From a virus (Duplodnaviria; Heunggongvirae; Uroviricota; Caudoviricetes), in IMG/VR virus record IMGVR_UViG_2671181122_000013: a stretch of DNA of 32,927 nucleotides; one strand, given 5' to 3'. A program made the translations under genes and the position numbers. Position 1 is the stretch's first letter; each line of letters begins with the position of its first letter. The notes under the pieces were generated by a model, which saw only the letters and a list, made by a program, of their open reading frames with translations, was not told the origin of the DNA and made no database searches. Shown here piece after piece: positions 1 to 32,927 of this stretch.

Positions 1-1362
1 ATGTTTAAACCGGAACTCCTTTCCCCGGCGGGAACGCTGAAAAATATGCGTTACGCTTTCGCTTATGGCGCAGATGCTGTTTATGCGGGCCAGCCGCGTT
101 ACTCCCTGCGTGTACGCAACAACGAATTCAACCACGAAAATCTTCAGCTCGGCATCAATGAAGCCCACGCGCTGGGGAAAAAGTTTTATGTCGTGGTCAA
201 CATTGCACCGCACAACGCCAAGCTGAAAACCTTTATCCGTGACCTGAAACCGGTGGTGGAAATGGGGCCGGATGCGCTGATTATGTCCGATCCAGGGCTG
301 ATTATGCTGGTGCGTGAGCACTTCCCGGAAATGCCAATCCACCTCTCGGTACAGGCTAACGCCGTGAACTGGGCGACGGTAAAATTCTGGCAGCAAATGG
401 GTCTGACCCGCGTGATCCTCTCTCGCGAACTGTCACTGGAAGAGATTGAAGAGATCCGCAATCAGGTGCCGGATATGGAGATCGAAATCTTCGTTCACGG
501 CGCGCTGTGCATGGCCTACTCCGGTCGCTGCCTGCTCTCTGGCTATATCAACAAGCGCGACCCGAACCAGGGCACCTGCACCAACGCCTGCCGCTGGGAG
601 TACAACGTCCAGGAAGGGAAAGAAGATGACGTTGGCAACATCGTACACAAGTACGAGCCGATTCCGGTGCAAAATGTTGAGCCGACGCTGGGTATCGGCG
701 CGCCAACCGACAAAGTGTTTATGATCGAAGAAGCCCAGCGTCCGGGCGAGTATATGACCGCGTTTGAAGATGAGCACGGCACTTACATCATGAACTCGAA
801 AGATCTGCGCGCCATCGCCCATGTTGAACGCCTGACCAAAATGGGCGTGCATTCGCTGAAAATCGAAGGCCGTACCAAATCTTTCTACTATTGCGCACGC
901 ACCGCGCAGGTTTACCGTAAAGCTATCGATGACGCCGCTGCGGGCAAACCGTTCGATACCAGCCTGCTGGAAACGCTGGAAGGTCTGGCGCATCGTGGCT
1001 ATACCGAAGGTTTCCTGCGTCGTCATACCCACGACGATTATCAGAACTACGAATACGGTTATTCGGTTTCTGACCGTCAGCAGTTTGTTGGTGAGTTTAC
1101 CGGTGAGCGCAAGGGGGAGCTCGCGGCGGTAGCGGTGAAAAATAAATTCTCCGTTGGCGACAGCCTTGAGCTGATGACGCCGCAAGGCAACATTAACTTT
1201 ACCCTTGAGCACATGGAAAACGCCAAAGGTGAAGCAATGCCGGTCGCACCAGGCGATGGTTATACTGTGTGGCTCCCGGTGCCGCAGGATCTTGAGCTAA
1301 ATTACGCGCTGCTGATGCGTAATTTCTCCGGGGAAACCACGCGTACCCCCCACGGTAAGTGA
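1..1362 (+). CDS. yegQ: Peptidase U32-family protein (tRNA hydroxylation protein YegQ/TrhP), 453 aa
   Basis: Full-length 453-aa ORF starting at window base 1; sequence recognised as E. coli YegQ (U32 family); the adjacent cyaR sRNA gene matches the K-12 yegQ-cyaR-ogrK context. Confidence 0.8.
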   Translation: MFKPELLSPAGTLKNMRYAFAYGADAVYAGQPRYSLRVRNNEFNHENLQLGINEAHALGKKFYVVVNIAPHNAKLKTFIRDLKPVVEMGPDALIMSDPGLIMLVREHFPEMPIHLSVQANAVNWATVKFWQQMGLTRVILSRELSLEEIEEIRNQVPDMEIEIFVHGALCMAYSGRCLLSGYINKRDPNQGTCTNACRWEYNVQEGKEDDVGNIVHKYEPIPVQNVEPTLGIGAPTDKVFMIEEAQRPGEYMTAFEDEHGTYIMNSKDLRAIAHVERLTKMGVHSLKIEGRTKSFYYCARTAQVYRKAIDDAAAGKPFDTSLLETLEGLAHRGYTEGFLRRHTHDDYQNYEYGYSVSDRQQFVGEFTGERKGELAAVAVKNKFSVGDSLELMTPQGNINFTLEHMENAKGEAMPVAPGDGYTVWLPVPQDLELNYALLMRNFSGETTRTPHGK

Positions 1363-1394
1363 TTAATTTCGATTATTTTTCCCGGATGGAAAAT

Positions 1395-1446
1395 TCTTAG
1401 AAACCGATCACATACAGCTGCATTTATTAAGGTTATCATCCGTTTC
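1395..1446 (+). promoter_or_regulatory. Putative cyaR promoter with CRP-like half-site (TCACA at 1408..1412) and -10-like TATCAT (1434..1439)
   Basis: TATCAT lies 7 nt upstream of the inferred CyaR 5' end; TCACA half-site centred about -42; CyaR is known to be CRP-activated. The left half-site is a weak match (TTAGA). Confidence 0.4.
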
Positions 1447-1533
1447 GCTGAAAAACATAACCCATAAAATGCTAGCTGTACCAGGAACCACCTCCTTAGC
1501 CTGTGTAATCTCCCTTACACGGGCTTATTTTTT
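1447..1533 (+). ncRNA. cyaR: CyaR (RyeE) Hfq-dependent small RNA
   Basis: Sequence GCTGAAAAACATAACCCATAAAATGCTAGCTGTACCAGGAACCACCTCCTTAGCCTGTGTAATCTCCCTTACACGGGCTTATTTTTT matches CyaR as remembered; ends in a hairpin plus T-run; position immediately downstream of yegQ. Confidence 0.8.
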
Positions 1534-1534
1534 A
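1507..1534. repeat. attL: 28-bp direct repeat AATCTCCCTTACACGGGCTTATTTTTTA (P2-type att core)
   Basis: Exact 28-bp copy of 32255..32282; reverse complement matches the P2 attP core AAAAAATAAGCCCGTGTAAGGGAGATT recalled from the literature. Confidence 0.85.
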
Positions 1535-1635: not shown

Positions 1636-1854
1636 TTACATCCACATAATTTGCTGCCCTGACGGCAACGGGTGCGGCCTCACGGCGTGGACTTCTCCCG
1701 GCTTCACGATGTATCGCTGTACCGACTCATAAGTGATGAACGTGGCGCTGCAATTCACGTTCTGACACTGGTGATAACGCTCTTTTGTCGTGTCAGTGAT
1801 ATAGCGACTTGTACGCGCATGTGCGGCATGCTGGCATAAAGGACAATGAAACAT
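1636..1854 (-). CDS. ogr: Ogr late-gene transcription activator (zinc finger), 72 aa
   Basis: Protein from MFHCPLCQHAAHARTSRYITDTTKERYHQCQNVNC has the CxxC-x22-CxxxxC motif; start taken at the internal ATG to match the 72-aa Ogr rather than the 93-aa ORF. Confidence 0.85.
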   Translation of the reverse strand: MFHCPLCQHAAHARTSRYITDTTKERYHQCQNVNCSATFITYESVQRYIVKPGEVHAVRPHPLPSGQQIMWM

Positions 1855-8297: not shown

Positions 8298-8891
8298 CTA
8301 TTTATCCCGGTTGGCTAAGGGATGACACAATTTATTTTTTGTCACGGAGGCGGGGAATTTTTTATAGAGCGTGGACAGGCCAATATCAAAAATCAGTGCC
8401 ACGCGTTGACGTGATTCCCCTGCAGCCAACAACCGCCCGGCCTGCTCCCACTCACTCGCGGTGAGTTTCGAACGTCTGCCACCAATACGACCTTTAGCTC
8501 TGGCCGCTTCCAGTCCGGCGCGAGTCCGCTCGACAATGAGTTCTCGTTCCGTTTCAGCCAGGGCACCCATCACATGAAAGAAAAAACGTCCCATCGGCGT
8601 GCTGGTATCAATGGCATCCGTCAGGCTGCGAAAATTAACGCCGCGTTCGCGCAGTTCCTCAACCAGAATGACCAGATGCCGCATACTACGCCCCAGCCTG
8701 TCCAGCTTCCAGACCACCAGAGTGTCACCTGCTGATAATGTTCTGAGCAGTTTTTTCAGTCCCGGTCGGTCGGACTTCGTGCCGCTGATTTTATCCTCAA
8801 AAATCAGCTCACATCCTGCACACTCCAGCGCGTTACGCTGCAATTCCGTGTTCTGGTCATTTGTTGACACGCGCACATAGCCAATAAGCAT
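8298..8891 (-). CDS. Site-specific DNA invertase, serine recombinase of the Gin/Pin/Hin/Cin family (about 197 aa)
   Basis: N-terminus MLIGYVRVSTNDQNTELQRNAL with catalytic-serine context and C-terminal HTH; very similar to remembered Gin/Pin sequences. Start taken at the second ATG (8891). Confidence 0.9.
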   Translation of the reverse strand: MLIGYVRVSTNDQNTELQRNALECAGCELIFEDKISGTKSDRPGLKKLLRTLSAGDTLVVWKLDRLGRSMRHLVILVEELRERGVNFRSLTDAIDTSTPMGRFFFHVMGALAETERELIVERTRAGLEAARAKGRIGGRRSKLTASEWEQAGRLLAAGESRQRVALIFDIGLSTLYKKFPASVTKNKLCHPLANRDK

Positions 8892-8918
8892 GAGCATCCC
8901 CCTGAATAAAAACCGGAG

Positions 8919-9332
8919 ATGATGCCAGTTGCCCGTTATCTCTGCATTTTCATAAACGTTGGTTTGGGAGAAGCGGCAAAACGGGATGTGGGGACAGGGG
9001 AAAATCAGATACCGGACATGGCCTCTTTTGCCAGTGGTGATGGATGGATGAAATTACCCAACGGGAAAATCCTGCAATATGGTCGTGGTGCGGTTACGCC
9101 GACATTATCGACGCAAACAATGAGAATTACATTCAGCATCCCTTTCCCCAAAAAAGCGGACTGCGCCATGCTTACTCATTCTGGTGATGGCGGTGCGCCT
9201 TTAGGCGCTGGGCGAGGGTTCGTGATGACTGCAGAAGGCCCAACGTTAACCGGCTTTAATTCTGCTTACAGAACGTCATCAACCAGCGACACGGTATCGA
9301 TGAATTACAGTTGGTGGGCTGTTGGTGAGTAA
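8919..9332 (+). CDS. Silent alternative tail-fibre C-terminal cassette (expressed only after inversion, fused to the H constant region)
   Basis: Plus-strand ORF reading through the crossover site in frame (…NVGLGE…); shares the GLGE junction with H; ends in a tail-fibre-like C-terminus; followed by a tail-fibre assembly gene. Confidence 0.6.
   Translation: MMPVARYLCIFINVGLGEAAKRDVGTGENQIPDMASFASGDGWMKLPNGKILQYGRGAVTPTLSTQTMRITFSIPFPKKADCAMLTHSGDGGAPLGAGRGFVMTAEGPTLTGFNSAYRTSSTSDTVSMNYSWWAVGE
8947..8972. repeat. 26-bp invertase crossover site (left), TTTTCATAAACGTTGGTTTGGGAGAA
   Basis: Imperfect palindrome of the TTnnnnnAAACC/GGTTT type; 14 bp (TTGGTTTGGGAGAA) are an exact inverted repeat of 10847..10860. 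Confidence 0.75.
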
Positions 9333-9343
9333 TTTTATTCAGG

Positions 9344-9796
9344 GTGATTTATATGAACGAATATGTTTATAGCGCAAGGCATAATGCTTTTTTCCCTGTG
9401 GATATGATTGATAAATATAAATCAGAGGGATGGGATTTATCAGACGCTAAGGAAGTAAATCAAAATATTATCAGTGAGTTTATGGCTGAACCGCCACAAG
9501 GAAAAATCCGTATTGCCGGAGATGATGGGCTGCCTGCGTGGGCAGATATTCCTCCACCCACGCATGAAGAGCTTATTGAAATTACTGAATCAGAAAGACA
9601 GCTACTAATTAACCAGGCCAACGAATACATGAACAGTAAGCAATGGCCCGGTAAAGCCGCTATTGGTCGTCTGAAAGGTGAGGAACTGGCGCAATATAAT
9701 TTGTGGCTGGATTATCTGGATGCACTGGAGCTGGTTGATACCTCCAGTGCGCCAGATATTGAATGGCCTACGCCTCCGGCAGTTCAGGCCAGATGA
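9344..9796 (+). CDS. Alternative tail-fibre assembly protein (Tfa/U'-like), 150 aa
   Basis: C-terminal motif LWLDYLDALELVDTSSAPDIEWP typical of Tfa chaperones; convergent with and overlapping the 3' end of the active-orientation Tfa gene. Confidence 0.75.
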   Translation: MIYMNEYVYSARHNAFFPVDMIDKYKSEGWDLSDAKEVNQNIISEFMAEPPQGKIRIAGDDGLPAWADIPPPTHEELIEITESERQLLINQANEYMNSKQWPGKAAIGRLKGEELAQYNLWLDYLDALELVDTSSAPDIEWPTPPAVQAR

Positions 9797-10370
9797 CATC
9801 CGGCGCGGTGCTGGTATCTGTTGCCGTCACCGCGTCAATGTAATCCAGCACGGCGTTAAGTCGGGTTGTTTCTGCCTGCGTCAACTTCCGTCCGGCCTGT
9901 AATTTCAGCTGAATCAGACTAATGGAAACCATTGCTGCATCAATCAGTGACTGGCGCTGTGCTTCTGCCGCGTCTACTGCGGCGCTATGCTGTGCCTCAG
10001 TATCCGTCACCCATTTCTCACCATCCCATTTATCATATGGCGTTAACGGGGCGATAGTGGTTGTATTTTCAGGGTAATCACCCGGAGCTGTGATTTCTTT
10101 GGCGTCTCCCGTTTCGGTGTTATAGACGATTTCACCGCGATGGTCTGACACATATTCCCATGATTTTAAATCCACAGAACGGCAAATTGTATAACCAGCT
10201 TTATGTGTAACTGGTGCATCTAAACAAGAACATGCCGGGATACCGACGCCAACCGCAAGATATTCAGTTGATGTGGAAATATATTCCCGCGTTTCACCAT
10301 CATAGTTATAAACGGTAATATCCCCTGCCTTTGTAGCAACAAGTCCACTATTTAATATTGCTTTATCCAT
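9768..10370 (-). CDS. Tail-fibre assembly protein (gpG-position, Tfa family), 200 aa
   Basis: C-terminal motif LNAVLDYIDAVTATDTSTAPDVIWP; directly downstream of H on the same strand. Confidence 0.8.
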   Translation of the reverse strand: MDKAILNSGLVATKAGDITVYNYDGETREYISTSTEYLAVGVGIPACSCLDAPVTHKAGYTICRSVDLKSWEYVSDHRGEIVYNTETGDAKEITAPGDYPENTTTIAPLTPYDKWDGEKWVTDTEAQHSAAVDAAEAQRQSLIDAAMVSISLIQLKLQAGRKLTQAETTRLNAVLDYIDAVTATDTSTAPDVIWPELPEA

Positions 10371-11686
10371 TATGCTGCTCTCACGATATAGTTAAATGCA
10401 ATGCTTCTTGGTCTGTTCTCTGAGGCAGTTGGCACTACTCTTGAAGCATCAAAATTGACTAAATGAGGATTGTTTGGGGTATTTGGAATGATTGTGGTGT
10501 TACCTATCGTATTACGAAGTGCTGATTGACTTACAAAAACACCACTCGCTGTATTAAAGCTAATAGCCGCATTAGCTTCGGTTTGTCCATTACCAAATGT
10601 GCCGGTTATATTACGAATAGCATCCCCCTGAGCAGACAGAATTTCGCGCCCCGCGTCAATACCGCGCCCGTCATCCCAGCCACGAATAAACTCACCACGT
10701 AAATCAGGCAATTTATTTGTCGGATAAGCCTTTGCCAGTTCCGGGTATTCTTCAGCAGAAAAAGCGGCACCGTTGCATTTCAGCCAGCCTGTTGGCGGAG
10801 TGGCGGAAGGCCACGGAACAGGCACGCCAACGGGTAATGCCGAACCTTCTCCCAAACCAAGGTATGCAAGAAGACCGGCAACATCCTTCCCACTCAAATG
10901 AGTCAGCGTCTCATCCAGTGGCTGCTTACCTGACAGCGCATTGTTAATGGTGGTACTGAATTTCGGGTCATTGTTGATAGCTGCGGCAATTTCTTTCAGT
11001 GTGTCCAGCGTGTCAGGGGCACCGTTAATCAGAGCGGTAATAGCGGCCTGTACAAACGCAGTGGTCGCAATCCGCGTGGTGTTATTTCCTGCGGCAGGCG
11101 TCGGCGCTTTTGGTTCTCCGGTAAATGTCGGATTATGTTTCTGTGCATACTGGGTATGAGGATCCTGTGCGGCAATGTGGTTTCTCATCTGGTCATCCAC
11201 ATACAGCTTTAATTCCAGGACTTTATCATCCACGTATTTACGGGTCGCCAGTACCACCGACGGGTCGATTTTCAGCGTGATGGCTTCGGTATTCGTGACA
11301 ACCAGAATCATGCGGATAGTCTGGGTACGACCACTGCCTTCCTGCAACTGCGGTTTGTACGTTTCCGGGCAGTTCGCCACCGCAATGAGTACGCCTTCAT
11401 CATCATAAAGCCCAATCTCACGGATCCAGAATCCGCCCTCGTTCTCAGGGATGATTTGCTCCGCAATAATCTGGCTCTGGTTGTTCGGGTCAACACTCAG
11501 AAGATTCAGCGGCGCGATGCGTTTCTGGTTAATCAGTTTTGTCTGTGCCGGGTCTGGTGTCGGCAAGACACCATTCGCATCACCAACGGCCATTTGCGTC
11601 AGATTCAGCTTACTGCCGAGCATCGTCGCGTTAGCCAGCCGTGCTGCGCCCTGATTAGTCAGAATGGCGTAGTATTTCACTGTCAT
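10370..11686 (-). CDS. H: Tail fibre protein gpH, 438 aa (constant N-terminus plus currently expressed variable C-terminus)
   Basis: Position between I and the Tfa gene; shorter than the 669-aa P2 gpH, consistent with a replaced C-terminal module. Confidence 0.85.
   Translation of the reverse strand: MTVKYYAILTNQGAARLANATMLGSKLNLTQMAVGDANGVLPTPDPAQTKLINQKRIAPLNLLSVDPNNQSQIIAEQIIPENEGGFWIREIGLYDDEGVLIAVANCPETYKPQLQEGSGRTQTIRMILVVTNTEAITLKIDPSVVLATRKYVDDKVLELKLYVDDQMRNHIAAQDPHTQYAQKHNPTFTGEPKAPTPAAGNNTTRIATTAFVQAAITALINGAPDTLDTLKEIAAAINNDPKFSTTINNALSGKQPLDETLTHLSGKDVAGLLAYLGLGEGSALPVGVPVPWPSATPPTGWLKCNGAAFSAEEYPELAKAYPTNKLPDLRGEFIRGWDDGRGIDAGREILSAQGDAIRNITGTFGNGQTEANAAISFNTASGVFVSQSALRNTIGNTTIIPNTPNNPHLVNFDASRVVPTASENRPRSIAFNYIVRAA
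10847..10872. repeat. 26-bp invertase crossover site (right), inside gene H
   Basis: TTCTCCCAAACCAAGGTATGCAAGAA; inverted partner of 8947..8972; falls near H codon 271 (…AYLGLGEGS…). Confidence 0.75.
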
Positions 11687-23726: not shown

Positions 23727-24920
23727 TTAAATTCTGCATCCATCGGTTTGAAAATGTGATCCGTTTTTCGAATTCAAACTCAACTCTGTTTGACTCTTTT
23801 GAACATTAATAGTTTTACCAGTAAGGACATCCAAAACCCCTGCAGCAACAGCCTGCGCCAATTTACAAGGCACAGCATTCCCTATCTGACGCCAAATTGA
23901 CGAATTTTTCCCCACAAAGACATAATTACTCGGGAATGTTTGAATCAAAAGAGCCTCATCTATCGTTAGTCGACGTAAACGACTAGGTACATCGTGCATA
24001 TCTTTTGGCTCACCACCATTCATTAGATGATTATGATAAGTCTCAACATAACTTGTTGAGCCATCATAAAGGTGTTCTTCATCAATAATTGGTGTCCTAT
24101 TCCCCCCCATAGAAGCAGCTATAGTTGAAGCATACCCATTCGGGTTAATTGGTCTTCCCTGCCCGTTAAACATCATTCCCGCGTAAGGTGACTTCCGTAA
24201 TACTGGCTTAGCAGCATTTGTAATCCTTGCATTACAGACTCTTGAATTGTTTGGATTACCCGCTCGCCCTAAAGGCCGAATAATCTCACCAACTGTGGGC
24301 GAAAGATATTGGTATTTTTTTATCGCCGCCTCAACTCGTTTCACATCATTTTCGGAACGAAACCCTATAAAAAACATACGTTCCCTATTCTGAGGAACGC
24401 CAAAATCTTTAGAATTCAGCACCAGCAAGGCTGAACGATAGCCTGACTTTTCAGCCATCTTAAACAGTTCACACCTAACTGGTTCAAATTTGGACAACTG
24501 TGCTAAAGCCTTAACATTCTCCATAACAAAGCATTCTGGTTGAATTATATCCACCGCCCGCATGAATGACATAACCAGCTTACTACGTGGATCATGAGCG
24601 TCCATTTTCCCTGCCACAGAAAATCCTTGGCATGGAGGCCCACCAAAAACACAACCTATATTTTTCAGCCCAGACAATTCACTTAGCATCTCATCAATAT
24701 CACCACAAAAAACAGGTGATTCATGATTAAGCTTAAATGTATCACATGCATCCTTATCTATATCATTGGCCCAAACTGTTCGGAACCCGGCATTAGAGAA
24801 ACCGACATCCATCCCTCCTGCCCCAGTAAATAAGCTCACCGCTGAAATTTTGTTCACTTCTTTAGCACCAATTATTCGATTTTGGAATAAAACCAATGAT
24901 AGGTAAGGATCGACACACAA
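23727..24920 (-). CDS. C5-cytosine DNA methyltransferase (Type II modification enzyme)
   Basis: Motif I LFTGAGGMDVGF, motif IV GGPPCQGFSVAG, motif VI FVMENVKAL, motif VIII QNRERMFFIGF, motif X IGNAVP. The ORF-track start at 24920 is a TTG codon; the real start may be the GTG near 24857, giving an MNKISAVSLFTGAGG N-terminus. Confidence 0.9.
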   Translation of the reverse strand: MCVDPYLSLVLFQNRIIGAKEVNKISAVSLFTGAGGMDVGFSNAGFRTVWANDIDKDACDTFKLNHESPVFCGDIDEMLSELSGLKNIGCVFGGPPCQGFSVAGKMDAHDPRSKLVMSFMRAVDIIQPECFVMENVKALAQLSKFEPVRCELFKMAEKSGYRSALLVLNSKDFGVPQNRERMFFIGFRSENDVKRVEAAIKKYQYLSPTVGEIIRPLGRAGNPNNSRVCNARITNAAKPVLRKSPYAGMMFNGQGRPINPNGYASTIAASMGGNRTPIIDEEHLYDGSTSYVETYHNHLMNGGEPKDMHDVPSRLRRLTIDEALLIQTFPSNYVFVGKNSSIWRQIGNAVPCKLAQAVAAGVLDVLTGKTINVQKSQTELSLNSKNGSHFQTDGCRI

Positions 24921-25210
24921 TCAATCACCTTCTAAACCACATGGCAAAACGACAACCAACTATACATGATCATAGATACAGGTGCCTAGTCCAGCTTCTC
25001 ACCAAACTACGCAAAGAAGCTTCTCTTTCGCAGTCAGAATTGGCCATTTTTCTAGGATTATCACAATCAGATATATCTAAAATCGAAAGCTTTGAAAGGC
25101 GATTAGATGCTTTAGAACTATTTGAATTATTAGAGGTGGTTGCAAGCCGATTAGGTCTACCAATGGATATCTTACTAAAGGACACCTATGAAAGTATTAG
25201 TAAATCATGA
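24896..25210 (+). CDS. Small HTH (XRE/Cro-type) protein, candidate controller (C) protein of the R-M cassette
   Basis: HTH-like segment LSQSELAIFLGLSQSDISKIE; divergent from the methyltransferase; its 3' end overlaps the downstream nuclease gene by 23 nt (translational coupling). Confidence 0.6.
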   Translation: MIGKDRHTINHLLNHMAKRQPTIHDHRYRCLVQLLTKLRKEASLSQSELAIFLGLSQSDISKIESFERRLDALELFELLEVVASRLGLPMDILLKDTYESISKS

Positions 25211-26243
25211 GCAAGCCTATAATGCAATTATAAATGCAATCAACGATGCAAAAAAATTAACTGATTACAAAACAAATAATCAATGGGTCTCCATTCAAAA
25301 TGTAATTTTAGGCACCCACCTTACATACAGATATATACTTATTACTGGTTTACTTGCAAAAGCAACAGACCCTAGAGTAAACCCTCTGGCTTTACAAGCT
25401 AATGCCCCCGTAGACGGAGCCTATGATGCAAGAAGTTTATGTCATTCGGTAATAGTAGGCAAAGTAGAAGGCCCATTTTTAGAGGGTAAGTTAGGCGCAT
25501 CAAATGAGCCATTTCTAAATAAACCTGCTCGTTACATGCTCCACTCCTCTGATAACCCTGTGCGCAGAGGAAATGATAAGGTTTTACAACAACTTTCAAT
25601 TGATATATTACATGCAGCAACAACCCAAACCTTAGCTTATGAAATGCTTGTTATTGCATTATATTTTACCCTACAGCGAACCAATAGAGTTATAACGCCG
25701 AACTCAATTAATTTTGATTTTCATAAGATTATTTATAATATTATATCTCATCCTTGTGATGGAGAAACATGCGCGATTGCTGCCGCAATTTCGTTACATT
25801 TATTAGGTGAACAAAGAGGATGGATAATAAAAGCACATCCCGTCAATCAGGCCGGTAGCTCCTCAAAAGAGATACTGGACATAGATGTATATCATGACGA
25901 TATAGTTTTCCTTTCTATAGAAGTGAAAGACAAACCATTTAATTATCAAGATGTTAATCACGCCGTTTCAAAAGCATCTGCATCCGGGATTTCAAAAGTT
26001 ATCTTCCTTAAAGGGCCAAGAGCAACAAACTTAGATATTGATGAGTCTCTTGCGATTGAGAACGCTGCGACAAAAGGTATTTCACTAAGCTTTAGTGACG
26101 TCATGACATTCACAACAACATGTTATGCGTTATCGCCACTATTAAGTAATGACAGAATAATAGATTTCATAAATAACACTTTAAAAGACATCAGAGCTAA
26201 AGATAGCACTATAGAATACATACAATCCATATTTAAAAATTAA
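25188..26243 (+). CDS. Putative restriction endonuclease (PD-(D/E)xK-like), 351 aa
   Basis: Motif …LDIDVYHDDIVFLSIEVKDK… (Asp followed by a hydrophobic strand and E-x-K); AGGA ribosome-binding site 7 nt upstream of the ATG; AT-rich; adjacent to the methyltransferase and HTH genes. Confidence 0.55.
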   Translation: MKVLVNHEQAYNAIINAINDAKKLTDYKTNNQWVSIQNVILGTHLTYRYILITGLLAKATDPRVNPLALQANAPVDGAYDARSLCHSVIVGKVEGPFLEGKLGASNEPFLNKPARYMLHSSDNPVRRGNDKVLQQLSIDILHAATTQTLAYEMLVIALYFTLQRTNRVITPNSINFDFHKIIYNIISHPCDGETCAIAAAISLHLLGEQRGWIIKAHPVNQAGSSSKEILDIDVYHDDIVFLSIEVKDKPFNYQDVNHAVSKASASGISKVIFLKGPRATNLDIDESLAIENAATKGISLSFSDVMTFTTTCYALSPLLSNDRIIDFINNTLKDIRAKDSTIEYIQSIFKN

Positions 26244-30183: not shown

Positions 30184-30374
30184 TTCCAGACCCTCCGGCT
30201 TTTCAGAAAGGTCAGAGTCTTTTTTAACGGACTCTGTTTTTTGGTGCGGATAATGATTCCCTTACGCCCCTTACCGTGGGTGATGGTGAAGTCAATCGCC
30301 CTGGGGCTTTCGTTACGCAATAACTGAGCAATACAACGAGGCTCATTCATACGGTTCTCCTTAACGTGGTTCAC
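30180..30374 (-). CDS. Small early-operon protein (P2 orf78 position), 64 aa
   Basis: Located between cox and B; overlaps both. Confidence 0.5.
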   Translation of the reverse strand: MNHVKENRMNEPRCIAQLLRNESPRAIDFTITHGKGRKGIIIRTKKQSPLKKTLTFLKSRRVWK

Positions 30375-30636
30375 CGAGACCTAACCACATCAACCAGCCG
30401 TCACGAATCTCTTTAGGACGGCTTTCATAAGCCAGTTTTAGTCCGTTATTCCATGCCGGAAGGTATACCCAATATTCACCAGCACGCCCCGATACTGACT
30501 GAGGGTCAGTAATCTCAATAACTGGTAATTTCCCTTTCTCAATCATGCCCCTTACAGCTCTTGGAGTTTTACCAATGAGTTTTGCAAACTCCTGATAAGG
30601 CACGGCATCAGTCACGCTTACAAGCTGTCTATTCAT
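30361..30636 (-). CDS. cox: Cox, excision directionality factor and Pc repressor, 91 aa
   Basis: 91 aa equals P2 Cox; first gene of the early operon, divergent from C. Confidence 0.85.
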   Translation of the reverse strand: MNRQLVSVTDAVPYQEFAKLIGKTPRAVRGMIEKGKLPVIEITDPQSVSGRAGEYWVYLPAWNNGLKLAYESRPKEIRDGWLMWLGLGEPR

Positions 30637-30757
30637 CTGCTACGATTCTCCCTTAGTGCTTCTAATGGCTCCTAATGGCTAATTATTGCCTAAAAGGATA
30701 ACTCCAGAAGCACAACATTTCACACTATCAGCAAGAAATTACGCAATCGGAGTAATT
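30637..30757. promoter_or_regulatory. Immunity switch region (Pe/Pc promoters and operators) with tandem 10-bp repeats at 30651..30680
   Basis: 121-bp intergenic region between divergent cox and C; repeats CCTTAGTGCT / TCTAATGGCT / CCTAATGGCT at 10-bp phasing; GGAG ribosome-binding site 5 nt before the C start. Confidence 0.6.
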
Positions 30758-31057
30758 ATGTCAATAGACGTTTCGGAGAAGTTGAAGCTAATCCGTGAAT
30801 CTGAAAGGTTAAACCGTAAAGAATTCAGTGAATTAACTGGTGTAGCCTACAGCTCACTTTCGAGCTATGAGAGCCGGTCAAAAAACGCTGGAGTTGAAGC
30901 CATAATGAAGGTCTTACAACATCCCAGATTTACTAAATATACTTTGTGGTTCATGACTGATCAGGTAGCTCCAGAAGCCGGGCAAATTGCGCCCGCTCTC
31001 GCACACTTTGGGCAAAACGAAACAACGTCGCCCCACTCCGGTCAAAAGACTGGTTAA
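30758..31057 (+). CDS. C: Immunity repressor C, 99 aa
   Basis: Start at the internal ATG (MSIDVSEKLKL…) gives the 99 aa of P2 C; HTH-like N-terminal region; upstream of int. Confidence 0.8.
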   Translation: MSIDVSEKLKLIRESERLNRKEFSELTGVAYSSLSSYESRSKNAGVEAIMKVLQHPRFTKYTLWFMTDQVAPEAGQIAPALAHFGQNETTSPHSGQKTG

Positions 31058-31172
31058 CAATTTATCGTGAATATATTCATCACAAGTGCCTACTATTGGT
31101 GGCTAAATTTCAGCCACCACGAAAAAAGCGATTAGTAGTAGCAAAAAAAAGTACCACTCGGAGGGTTTTCTG

Positions 31173-32198
31173 ATGGCAATCAAAAAACTCGATGATGGTC
31201 GATATGAAGTGGACATCCGCCCTACTGGACGTAACGGAAAACGCATCCGTAGGAAGTTTGATAAGAAAAGCGAAGCTGTCGCTTTCGAAAAATACACGTT
31301 GTACAACCACCACAATAAAGAATGGCTATCAAAACCAACAGACAAACGACGTCTGTCGGAACTGACACAGATCTGGTGGGATTTAAAGGGTAAACACGAA
31401 GAGCATGGGAAATCTAATCTTGGAAAAATTGAAATCTTCACAAAAATAACGAATGACCCATGCGCATTTCAAATCACGAAATCCCTTATCAGCCAGTACT
31501 GCGCCACCCGAAGAAGTCAGGGTATTAAACCTTCGAGTATCAATCGTGATTTAACATGTATTAGCGGCATGTTTACAGCCCTGATTGAAGCGGAGTTATT
31601 CTTTGGTGAGCACCCTATCAGAGGGACAAAGAGGCTTAAGGAGGAAAAACCAGAAACAGGCTATCTCACACAGGAAGAAATTGCCTTACTGCTTGCAGCA
31701 CTTGACGGCGACAACAAAAAGATTGCGATTCTTTGCCTGAGTACAGGAGCACGTTGGGGAGAAGCAGCTCGTTTGAAAGCAGAAAATATCATCCATAACC
31801 GCGTCACGTTTGTTAAAACGAAAACAAACAAACCACGCACCGTCCCGATCTCAGAGGCTGTTGCCAAAATGATCGCGGATAACAAACGAGGTTTTTTATT
31901 CCCTGATGCTGATTACCCTCGCTTCAGACGAACAATGAAAGCAATAAAACCGGATTTGCCAACGGGGCAAGCCACACATGCACTAAGGCACAGCTTTGCC
32001 ACTCATTTCATGATTAATGGAGGAAGTATTATCACGCTACAACGGATACTAGGTCACACGCGAATTGAGCAAACTATGGTTTACGCTCATTTTGCGCCAG
32101 AGTACCTTCAGGACGCCATTTCTCTTAATCCGCTAAGAGGTGGTACTGAAGCCGAGAGTGTCCACAGTAGAGTAACGTTTAAGGGCTTTCAGTGGTAA
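31173..32198 (+). CDS. int: Tyrosine integrase, 341 aa
   Basis: C-terminal catalytic region with HALRHSFATH…LGHTRIEQTMVYAH (Arg-His-Arg-Tyr context); sits next to the att core. Confidence 0.9.
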   Translation: MAIKKLDDGRYEVDIRPTGRNGKRIRRKFDKKSEAVAFEKYTLYNHHNKEWLSKPTDKRRLSELTQIWWDLKGKHEEHGKSNLGKIEIFTKITNDPCAFQITKSLISQYCATRRSQGIKPSSINRDLTCISGMFTALIEAELFFGEHPIRGTKRLKEEKPETGYLTQEEIALLLAALDGDNKKIAILCLSTGARWGEAARLKAENIIHNRVTFVKTKTNKPRTVPISEAVAKMIADNKRGFLFPDADYPRFRRTMKAIKPDLPTGQATHALRHSFATHFMINGGSIITLQRILGHTRIEQTMVYAHFAPEYLQDAISLNPLRGGTEAESVHSRVTFKGFQW

Positions 32199-32254
32199 TT
32201 TATGCCGCTCAAACCCGCATTGTACCGTTGAAAGCCCCTACTGGTGACACCCTA

Positions 32255-32282
32255 AATCTCCCTTACACGGGCTTATTTTTTA
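32255..32282. repeat. attR: 28-bp direct repeat identical to 1507..1534
   Basis: Exact copy AATCTCCCTTACACGGGCTTATTTTTTA, 57 bp downstream of the int stop. Confidence 0.85.
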
Positions 32283-32609
32283 TGCATAAGCCCTATCCCT
32301 GGTCACCGTCTTCCATTGACCACATCGATAGAATCCTCCTTCATAGCACGATGCCTTTCACTTATCGACATCGTGCTCGCACAGGTTCCGGTTACGCACA
32401 GCCAGAACGCGCATGTTTGACGCTTACCAAAAAATGAACCTAAAGCATTGGAATATTTTTGACATCATTTTCTGATGGCTGCATAAAATAAAAATTCTGC
32501 TTTAGTTTCATCTATCTGTTTGTCATTAATACTCACATTCAATAATAGTGTTGAAGAATATCCCATCACAGATAAAATAAATATGTGCATGGTAGTCTTG
32601 AATCTATTC

Positions 32610-32927
32610 TCACTCTCCACATTTGAATGTCAGACGAGCGACGCCATGTAATCCTGCACCTTCTGTCTTCAGGTCAACTATCTGCATTTTTTTGCCCTGA
32701 GTAACACAGAAATGAGTTGCATCATTTTTTACTATATTTTCTGCACCAGATATTCTACCCCTGGCTAAAGAAGCTTCGGCTTCGGTGTAGTATTGGTTAT
32801 CGAGTTTACGCTGAATATTACTTTTATATGCAAGGCCAATTTTACCGATACTTGTCTCATCATTATGCACAGCACAACCAGACATAAGAAAAACACTAAT
32901 TAATGATATAGCAGCTATCTTTTTCAC
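32610..32927 (-). CDS. yegR: Host lipoprotein, YegR-like (105 aa as tracked); start coincides with the window edge (GTG), may be truncated
   Basis: Signal peptide with lipobox LMSGC; position on the int side of the prophage matches K-12 yegR beyond the ogrK/yegZ remnant; name assigned from context and partial recollection. Confidence 0.5.
   Translation of the reverse strand: MKKIAAISLISVFLMSGCAVHNDETSIGKIGLAYKSNIQRKLDNQYYTEAEASLARGRISGAENIVKNDATHFCVTQGKKMQIVDLKTEGAGLHGVARLTFKCGE

Follow-up and report, generated by a model that had tools for sequence, protein, structure and literature searches.

A P2-like prophage at the 3' end of the cyaR small RNA gene and a natural A/G marker in its attachment core

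Integration of phages at the 3' ends of RNA genes is known from several systems: phage 186 integrates in a tRNA-Ile gene, Fels-2 and SopE-phi integrate in ssrA, and other phages are found at ryeB/sdsR in Salmonella. Phage P2 recombines by means of Int, IHF and Cox at an attP with a 27-nt core, and the arm-type consensus of P2-type Int is tgTGGaCa (PMC3448106). P2-type integrases are described as integrating mostly between genes (Nilsson and Haggard-Ljungquist 2011), so the phage literature has paid less attention to the overlap of such a site with a small RNA (sRNA) gene than work on sRNAs has. A statement in Bobay, Rocha and Touchon 2013 (PMC3603311), which cites Wassarman et al. 2001, names ryeE (cyaR) in E. 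coli as a phage target recognised earlier, and Barreiro and Haggard-Ljungquist 1992, by its title, deals with attachment sites of P2 and with a P2-like remnant that K-12 carries. In the RefSeq annotation of K-12, the cryptic prophage PR-X (2167183-2167811; ogrK and yegZ) overlaps the last 18 nt of cyaR (2167114-2167200). Because of the statement by Bobay et al., the PR-X annotation and the 1992 title, the arrangement has to be regarded as already known, and we found nothing more direct than Bobay et al. 2013 in the literature on cyaR as a phage attachment site. Phage insertion at the 3' end of cyaR is already described, and it is very common in E. coli.

We analysed a stretch of 32,927 nt (the window) from the virus record IMGVR_UViG_2671181122_000013, in which such an insertion is present with both of its junctions. 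The host features and the two copies of the attachment core in the window are as follows.

1-1362, plus strand: yegQ (trhP), a conserved gene of the host that precedes cyaR (Pfam Peptidase_U32 and its C-terminal domain; yegQ/trhP annotation in matching genomes)
1363-1446, plus strand: yegQ-cyaR intergenic region with the cyaR promoter (100% identical to K-12 MG1655)
1447-1533, plus strand: cyaR (ryeE) sRNA gene, full length (RF00112; 87/87 identical to K-12 b4438)
1498-1525, plus strand: CyaR intrinsic terminator hairpin, 11-bp stem and 6-nt loop (RNA fold, terminator scan and Rfam consensus structure)
1507-1534, plus strand: copy of the att core within cyaR, forming the ogr-proximal junction that the P2 prophage convention names attR (exact repeat; equal to the annotated P2 attP core)
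32255-32282, plus strand: second copy of the att core, forming the int-proximal junction that the P2 convention names attL (exact repeat; four-way alignment)
32610-32927, minus strand: yegR, host gene beyond the attachment site (yegR annotation in matching genomes)

The cyaR gene lies directly downstream of yegQ on the same strand, which is the conserved position of CyaR/RyeE genes. The Rfam covariance model RF00112 matches the plus strand at 1445-1530 with 100.7 bits (gathering score 47; E = 3.2e-19) and is covered entirely, from position 1 to position 85 of 85. The segment 1363-1534, which comprises cyaR and its upstream region, equals K-12 MG1655 at 172 of 172 positions; published work on K-12 describes the cyaR promoter as dependent on CRP-cAMP. 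The terminator consists of a 5' arm (1498-1508), a loop (1509-1514), a 3' arm (1515-1525) and a U-tail (1526-1533). The U-tail, UUAUUUUUU, reaches the length of at least about 7 residues that is expected of an Hfq-binding 3' end.

The 28-nt sequence AATCTCCCTTACACGGGCTTATTTTTTA occurs as an exact direct repeat at 1507-1534 and 32255-32282, and it is the attP core annotated in the GenBank record of phage P2. Of the terminator 5' arm, the core takes in only the last 2 nt, and from there it runs through the loop and the entire 3' arm to 1 nt beyond the U-tail. We aligned four sequences, namely P2 attP, the two junctions of the window and an E. coli site without a prophage. The results show that the junction on the cyaR side consists of the bacterial left arm, the core and the P2 ogr-side arm, that the other junction consists of the P2 int-side arm, the core and the bacterial right arm, and that the empty site consists of the bacterial left arm, the core and the bacterial right arm. 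An empty site was also assembled in silico by joining window positions 1001-1533 to 32282-32927. This site is found uninterrupted in strain RM14723 (99.8% identity over 1,179 nt) and in many other strains. In 4,565 of 5,426 complete E. coli genomes, at least 80% of it is matched at one single place, a count that takes in sites with short remnants, such as that of K-12. The sequence of cyaR is identical in the empty, K-12 and window states.

These results bear on a preliminary description of the locus, made from the window sequence, whose interval 1447-1534 runs from CyaR +1 to the end of the att core. Its central statement, that a prophage is integrated in the 3' end of cyaR, is borne out by the exact 28-nt repeat, the P2-type genes, the match to the P2 attP core and the existence of the empty site, and its statement that CyaR is full length agrees with the complete coverage of RF00112 and the identity to K-12 at all 87 positions. 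It had further proposed that the core coincides with the terminator hairpin and U-tail; this holds for the loop, the 3' arm and the U-tail, but 9 of the 11 nt of the 5' arm (1498-1506) lie outside the core. In the comparison that it suggested, with a prophage-free yegQ-cyaR-yegR region, the core lies inside cyaR, and the CyaR 3' end thus falls within the repeat and not outside it.

The DNA between the two core copies is a P2-like prophage, and its elements that are needed below are the following.

1535-32254: P2-like (Peduovirus) prophage, with 30,720 bp of unique phage DNA and 30,748 bp from att to att (Pfam content; nucleotide identity)
1636-1854, minus strand: ogr, late-gene activator of 72 aa (Pfam Ogr_Delta; translation begins MFHCPLCQ; positioned as P2 ogr)
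30361-30636, minus strand: cox, excisionase and Pc repressor (Pfam Phage_Cox, 1.7e-42)
30686-31057, plus strand: C immunity repressor, given as the listed open reading frame, whose true start is probably further in (Pfam HTH_3; positioned as P2 C)
31173-32198, plus strand: int, tyrosine integrase (Pfam Int_N and Phage_integrase; 56 nt from the distal core)

The Pfam matches place P2-type genes in the P2 order, namely ogr, gpD, tail tube, sheath, fibre, baseplate, capsid, terminase, portal, gpA, cox, C and int, and all core phage genes that we checked are intact open reading frames. The late genes are 96-97% identical to those of P2-type phages over 76-88% of the region 1535-26000. The int-proximal region 31100-32282 (1.18 kb) is 97.7% identical to the int-attP region of P2, and the match stops at the core. 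The window prophage thus shares with P2 the core, the int-side arm at this identity, the gene order from ogr and D through A, cox and C to int, and a nearly identical ogr-side arm that includes the positions of the IHF site, the Int arm sites and the ogr terminator. It differs from P2 in its size (30.7 kb, compared to 33.6 kb for P2), in carrying a restriction-modification pair where P2 has tin/old, and in carrying an invertase and alternative fibre cassettes where P2 has fun(Z). PR-X in K-12 has a cyaR/core/ogr-arm junction of the same form, which aligns with that of the window, and an identical cyaR. However, PR-X is a 629-bp remnant with only ogrK and a gpD fragment, whereas the prophage of the window looks complete and has int and both junctions.

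Two accessory regions were observed in the prophage. A C5 cytosine DNA methylase gene (23727-24920, minus strand) and a SacI-type restriction endonuclease gene (25188-26243, plus strand) lie between the portal gene and gpA, and the pair (23727-26243) looks like type II restriction-modification cargo in the accessory slot that holds tin/old in P2. Downstream of the fibre genes (9768-11686), a serine resolvase/invertase gene (8298-8897, minus strand) adjoins an oppositely oriented C-terminal tail-fibre cassette (8919-9332) together with another tail-fibre assembly gene, the second (9344-9796). The segment 8298-10370 looks like a Gin/Cin-type invertible host-range segment at the place of P2 fun(Z).

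The phage arms on the two sides of the prophage, and the host DNA next to the distal core, contain the following predicted elements.

1532-1596: phage P arm, with a predicted IHF site at about 1532-1565 and predicted Int arm-type sites at about 1569-1596 (homology to annotated P2 sites)
1602-1625: hairpin terminator of the ogr transcript/F operon (P2 annotation; terminator scan)
32141-32238 (approximate coordinates): phage P' arm, with a predicted Int arm site and a Cox-binding region (homology to P2; motif scan)
32294-32333, plus strand: degraded remnant of a P2-type P arm in the host DNA, which empty sites have as well (75% identical to 1562-1601)

In the motif scan, Int-type motifs are found in the P arm (GTCCACA at 1575 and GACCACA at 1586) and in the P' arm (GTCCACA at 32160), and they match the published P2-type consensus. 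The Cox sites are predicted at about 32165-32238. Int, IHF and Cox of the window phage would accordingly be expected to use the sites that homology to P2 maps in these arms.

The P-arm remnant on the host side of the distal core contains the exact 15-mer CATTGACCACATCGA and one Int arm-type site, and its register relative to the core is kept except for a deletion of 16 nt. The presence of this degraded P arm beside attB in "empty" E. coli sites suggests that the site has been used repeatedly over a long time; as far as can be judged from the DNA sequence, the "empty" site is itself the scar of an older P2-like occupancy. In the IMG/VR sequences, some hosts have ACGCGTAA in place of ATGCATAA immediately to the right of the core. 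Since ACGCGTAA matches the K-12-type phage arm over its initial 8 nt, the identity between attP and attB can reach 36 nt in some phage/host pairs.

Taken together, the four-way alignment, the gene content and the repeat show that a P2-like temperate phage has almost certainly integrated by means of its tyrosine integrase, through recombination between its attP core and an identical attB in the 3' part of cyaR; we found no evidence against integration at this site. In this mechanism, the 28-nt attP core recombines with the identical attB that forms the 3' part of cyaR, a complete cyaR is regenerated at the ogr-proximal junction, and a promoterless 3' fragment of cyaR is left at the int-proximal junction. 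Regeneration of the complete gene follows from the extent of the identity block, which ends 1 nt beyond the CyaR 3' end at 1533. As at the attachment sites in tRNA, tmRNA and other sRNA genes, attB here lies across the 3' end of an RNA gene that is conserved, forms a hairpin and is regenerated. Unlike the tRNA and tmRNA sites, the target in cyaR is the terminator of an Hfq-dependent sRNA and not a tRNA-like fold. The locus is therefore a clear example of an sRNA terminator that serves as a phage attB, in the way tRNA genes serve other phages. As a discovery it matters little: P2 normally attaches at this site, CyaR is unchanged in the window, and K-12, from which CyaR was characterised, shows this junction too, next to a remnant of P2.

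A natural polymorphism lies within the core. Window position 1521, which is CyaR nt 75, is either A or G and pairs with U in the terminator stem; it is position 15 of the 28 core positions and lies beside the dyad centre TTACAC. The base is G in both core copies of the window, in K-12, in RM14723 and in P2 attP, and A in 537 genomes that exactly match a 61-nt empty-site query with A, many of which appear to belong to ST131. The 13 nt 3' of the polymorphic base are monomorphic in the data examined. An A-type attP of a free phage was not found in a scan of IMG/VR sequences, a tiny sample of one true attP, which carries G, and four prophage/host junctions. The A75 and G75 hairpins have the same predicted structure, with energies of -15.9 and -16.6 kcal/mol, respectively, and the functional effect of nt 75 should be small given the shared structure and the small energy difference.

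We compared four lysogen types whose flanks are identical to those of strain 4/4, an A-type strain with an empty site: 4/1-1, O25b:H4, 30224_1#355 and MSB1_4E. Strain 4/1-1, which shows 0 flank mismatches to 4/4 over 2,059 + 2,359 bp, has G in its cyaR copy and A in its distal copy. A comparison of genome lists suggests that this pattern is common to up to 18 genomes among the matches listed, and these genomes are probably one clone. O25b:H4 has A in both copies, and its prophage is identical to that of 4/1-1 except for the nt-75 base. In isolate 30224_1#355 and in MSB1_4E, the latter with an independent prophage, the cyaR copy has A and the distal copy has G. Taken alone, strain 4/1-1 would indicate that the phage rewrote CyaR, but the opposite pattern of 30224_1#355 and MSB1_4E in the same background speaks against this as a general conclusion.

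With these data, the possible explanations of the repeat and of the distribution of nt 75 can be weighed. The repeat could in principle be a chance match or a transposition target duplication, with phage genes that are unrelated to cyaR, and we give this reading a negligible probability. None of 100 shuffled controls gave even one match to the 28-nt repeat, empty sites exist, the repeat is the core of free P2 attP, and its flanks match both P2 arms as recombination of attP with attB predicts. The target duplications of transposons are far shorter than 28 nt, and we found no support for a chance or transposition origin. Within the integration mechanism, the readings differ in the position of the crossover and hence in the part of CyaR that the phage would supply. 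If integration rewrote CyaR, a phage allele would replace the host 3' arm and would shift terminator strength and CyaR levels in lysogens. The comparison of 4/1-1 with its sister 4/4 agrees with such a replacement, as the flanks are identical and the A of the empty site is found in the distal copy of the lysogen, whose cyaR has G. However, the window, with G in both copies, is not a case of this kind, and the two independent events in 30224_1#355 and MSB1_4E show the opposite pattern. The A/A state of O25b:H4 with a near-identical prophage leaves a later mutation or conversion as another source of the 4/1-1 pattern; the predicted effect on the hairpin is just 0.7 kcal/mol with an unchanged structure, and both alleles are common in empty sites and thus evidently tolerated. 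We therefore consider rewriting of CyaR with an effect on its levels improbable.

A crossover far 3' in the core would leave CyaR entirely bacterial, with the phage contributing nothing or part of the U-tail, so that only the DNA beyond the terminator, and not the terminator itself, would be rebuilt from phage DNA. This is possible, and 30224_1#355 and MSB1_4E speak for it in keeping the host A in cyaR and G, the phage attP allele, in the distal copy; these two lysogens place nt 75 either 5' of the exchange or within it. On the other hand, 4/1-1 shows the reverse pattern in the same host background, nt 75 adjoins the TTACAC dyad centre, where the overlap region of a tyrosine recombinase would be expected, and the monomorphic 13 nt 3' of nt 75 carry no marker that could resolve a more distal crossover. 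Judged by the sequences, the sorting of nt 75 in both directions in one host background would fit best with a base that lies within the strand-exchange region and a heteroduplex that segregates either way; alternatively, nt 75 may lie just 5' of the crossover, with a later change in the 4/1-1 lineage. We infer that strand exchange takes place around or just 3' of the central TTACAC. A broader proposal can be offered only tentatively: if 1521 lies inside the strand-exchange region of P2 Int, heteroduplex would form at both junctions when a G-type phage integrates in an A-type host, and either allele could enter cyaR. Should this be true, P2-family phages, which are present at this site or have left remnants in about a fifth of E. 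coli genomes and in several further enterobacterial genera, would repeatedly exchange the allele of an sRNA terminator, and the wobble-forming G allele may even have spread through E. coli via these phages.

Only DNA 3' of the crossover can be derived from the phage, and the heteroallelic lysogens thus limit the phage share of CyaR to about 13 nt. Under all of these readings, the alignments suggest that the phage-derived part of CyaR would be at most about 12-13 nt (range 0-13). The preliminary description had held that the terminator is rebuilt from phage att sequence in the way tRNA genes are restored. The gene does appear to be regenerated in this manner, but most of the 5' arm is bacterial and the phage share would not extend beyond these few nucleotides. 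Its further suggestion, that integration or excision could alter CyaR, is not realised in the window, where the two core copies are identical and integration was consequently silent for the CyaR sequence; the only change seen elsewhere is a single A/G toggle worth 0.7 kcal/mol. What is new in this analysis is that the core has a natural A/G marker that segregates both ways in lysogens, a modest lead on the position of the P2 Int exchange. The marker is useful for mapping the P2 crossover and for testing the effect of lysogeny on CyaR termination.

Compared to the empty site, only the DNA downstream of the CyaR terminator differs in the window. Read-through of the CyaR terminator was about 41% in a plasmid assay with hfq deleted (PMC9765468). 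In a lysogen, transcripts that read through would be expected to continue into the phage arm in antisense orientation to ogr and to meet the hairpin at 1602-1625. This ogr/F-operon hairpin is terminator-like on the plus strand as well and lies 70 nt downstream of the CyaR terminator. It could stop CyaR read-through before the transcript runs antisense into ogr.

The junction of cyaR with the ogr arm is present in 1,165 of the 5,426 complete E. coli genomes (21%), and that of the int arm with yegR in 807 (15%). To extend the comparison beyond E. coli, we surveyed 80 yegQ loci, one per enterobacterial species. The CyaR motif is found at the same place in 75 of them, and the loop, 3' arm and U-tail of CyaR are nearly invariant among these 75 loci. 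A P2-type arm follows immediately after the CyaR U-tail in 8 of the 80 loci, which belong to Trabulsiella, Citrobacter, Scandinavium, Huaxiibacter and some Enterobacter; the near-invariance of the loop, 3' arm and U-tail helps explain such arms in several genera. E. albertii has a degenerate P2-type arm after cyaR, and two further survey loci have more degraded remnants. On this comparative evidence, the 3' end of cyaR is, as judged from these junctions, an attachment site of the P2 family across the Enterobacteriaceae. In the stem covariation of the 75 species, G-U wobbles of the terminator occur frequently whether or not a P2 arm is adjacent and do not discriminate for overwriting by phages, and the difference between the E. 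coli and E. albertii terminators is equally well explained by single transitions.

One record in this comparison, CP169086.1, is labelled Enterobacter hormaechei and has a YegQ that is 100% identical to that of the window, together with an E. coli-type CyaR terminator. The sequence after its U-tail is common to several Enterobacter species (five survey loci). A mislabelled record, a recombinant locus or another element at the same insertion point are possible explanations.

The cyaR site may be locI, the classical preferred site of P2. An empty locI would be expected in E. coli C, but in the available assembly the cyaR junction is occupied by a P2-like element with deletions; on account of this element, the identity of locI with the cyaR site is not asserted here. 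In that assembly (NZ_CP029371.1, 1-20400), the internal deletions of the element have left a partial portal gene, tail tube and gpD, and its cargo includes an ABC-three-component system and a glycosyltransferase.
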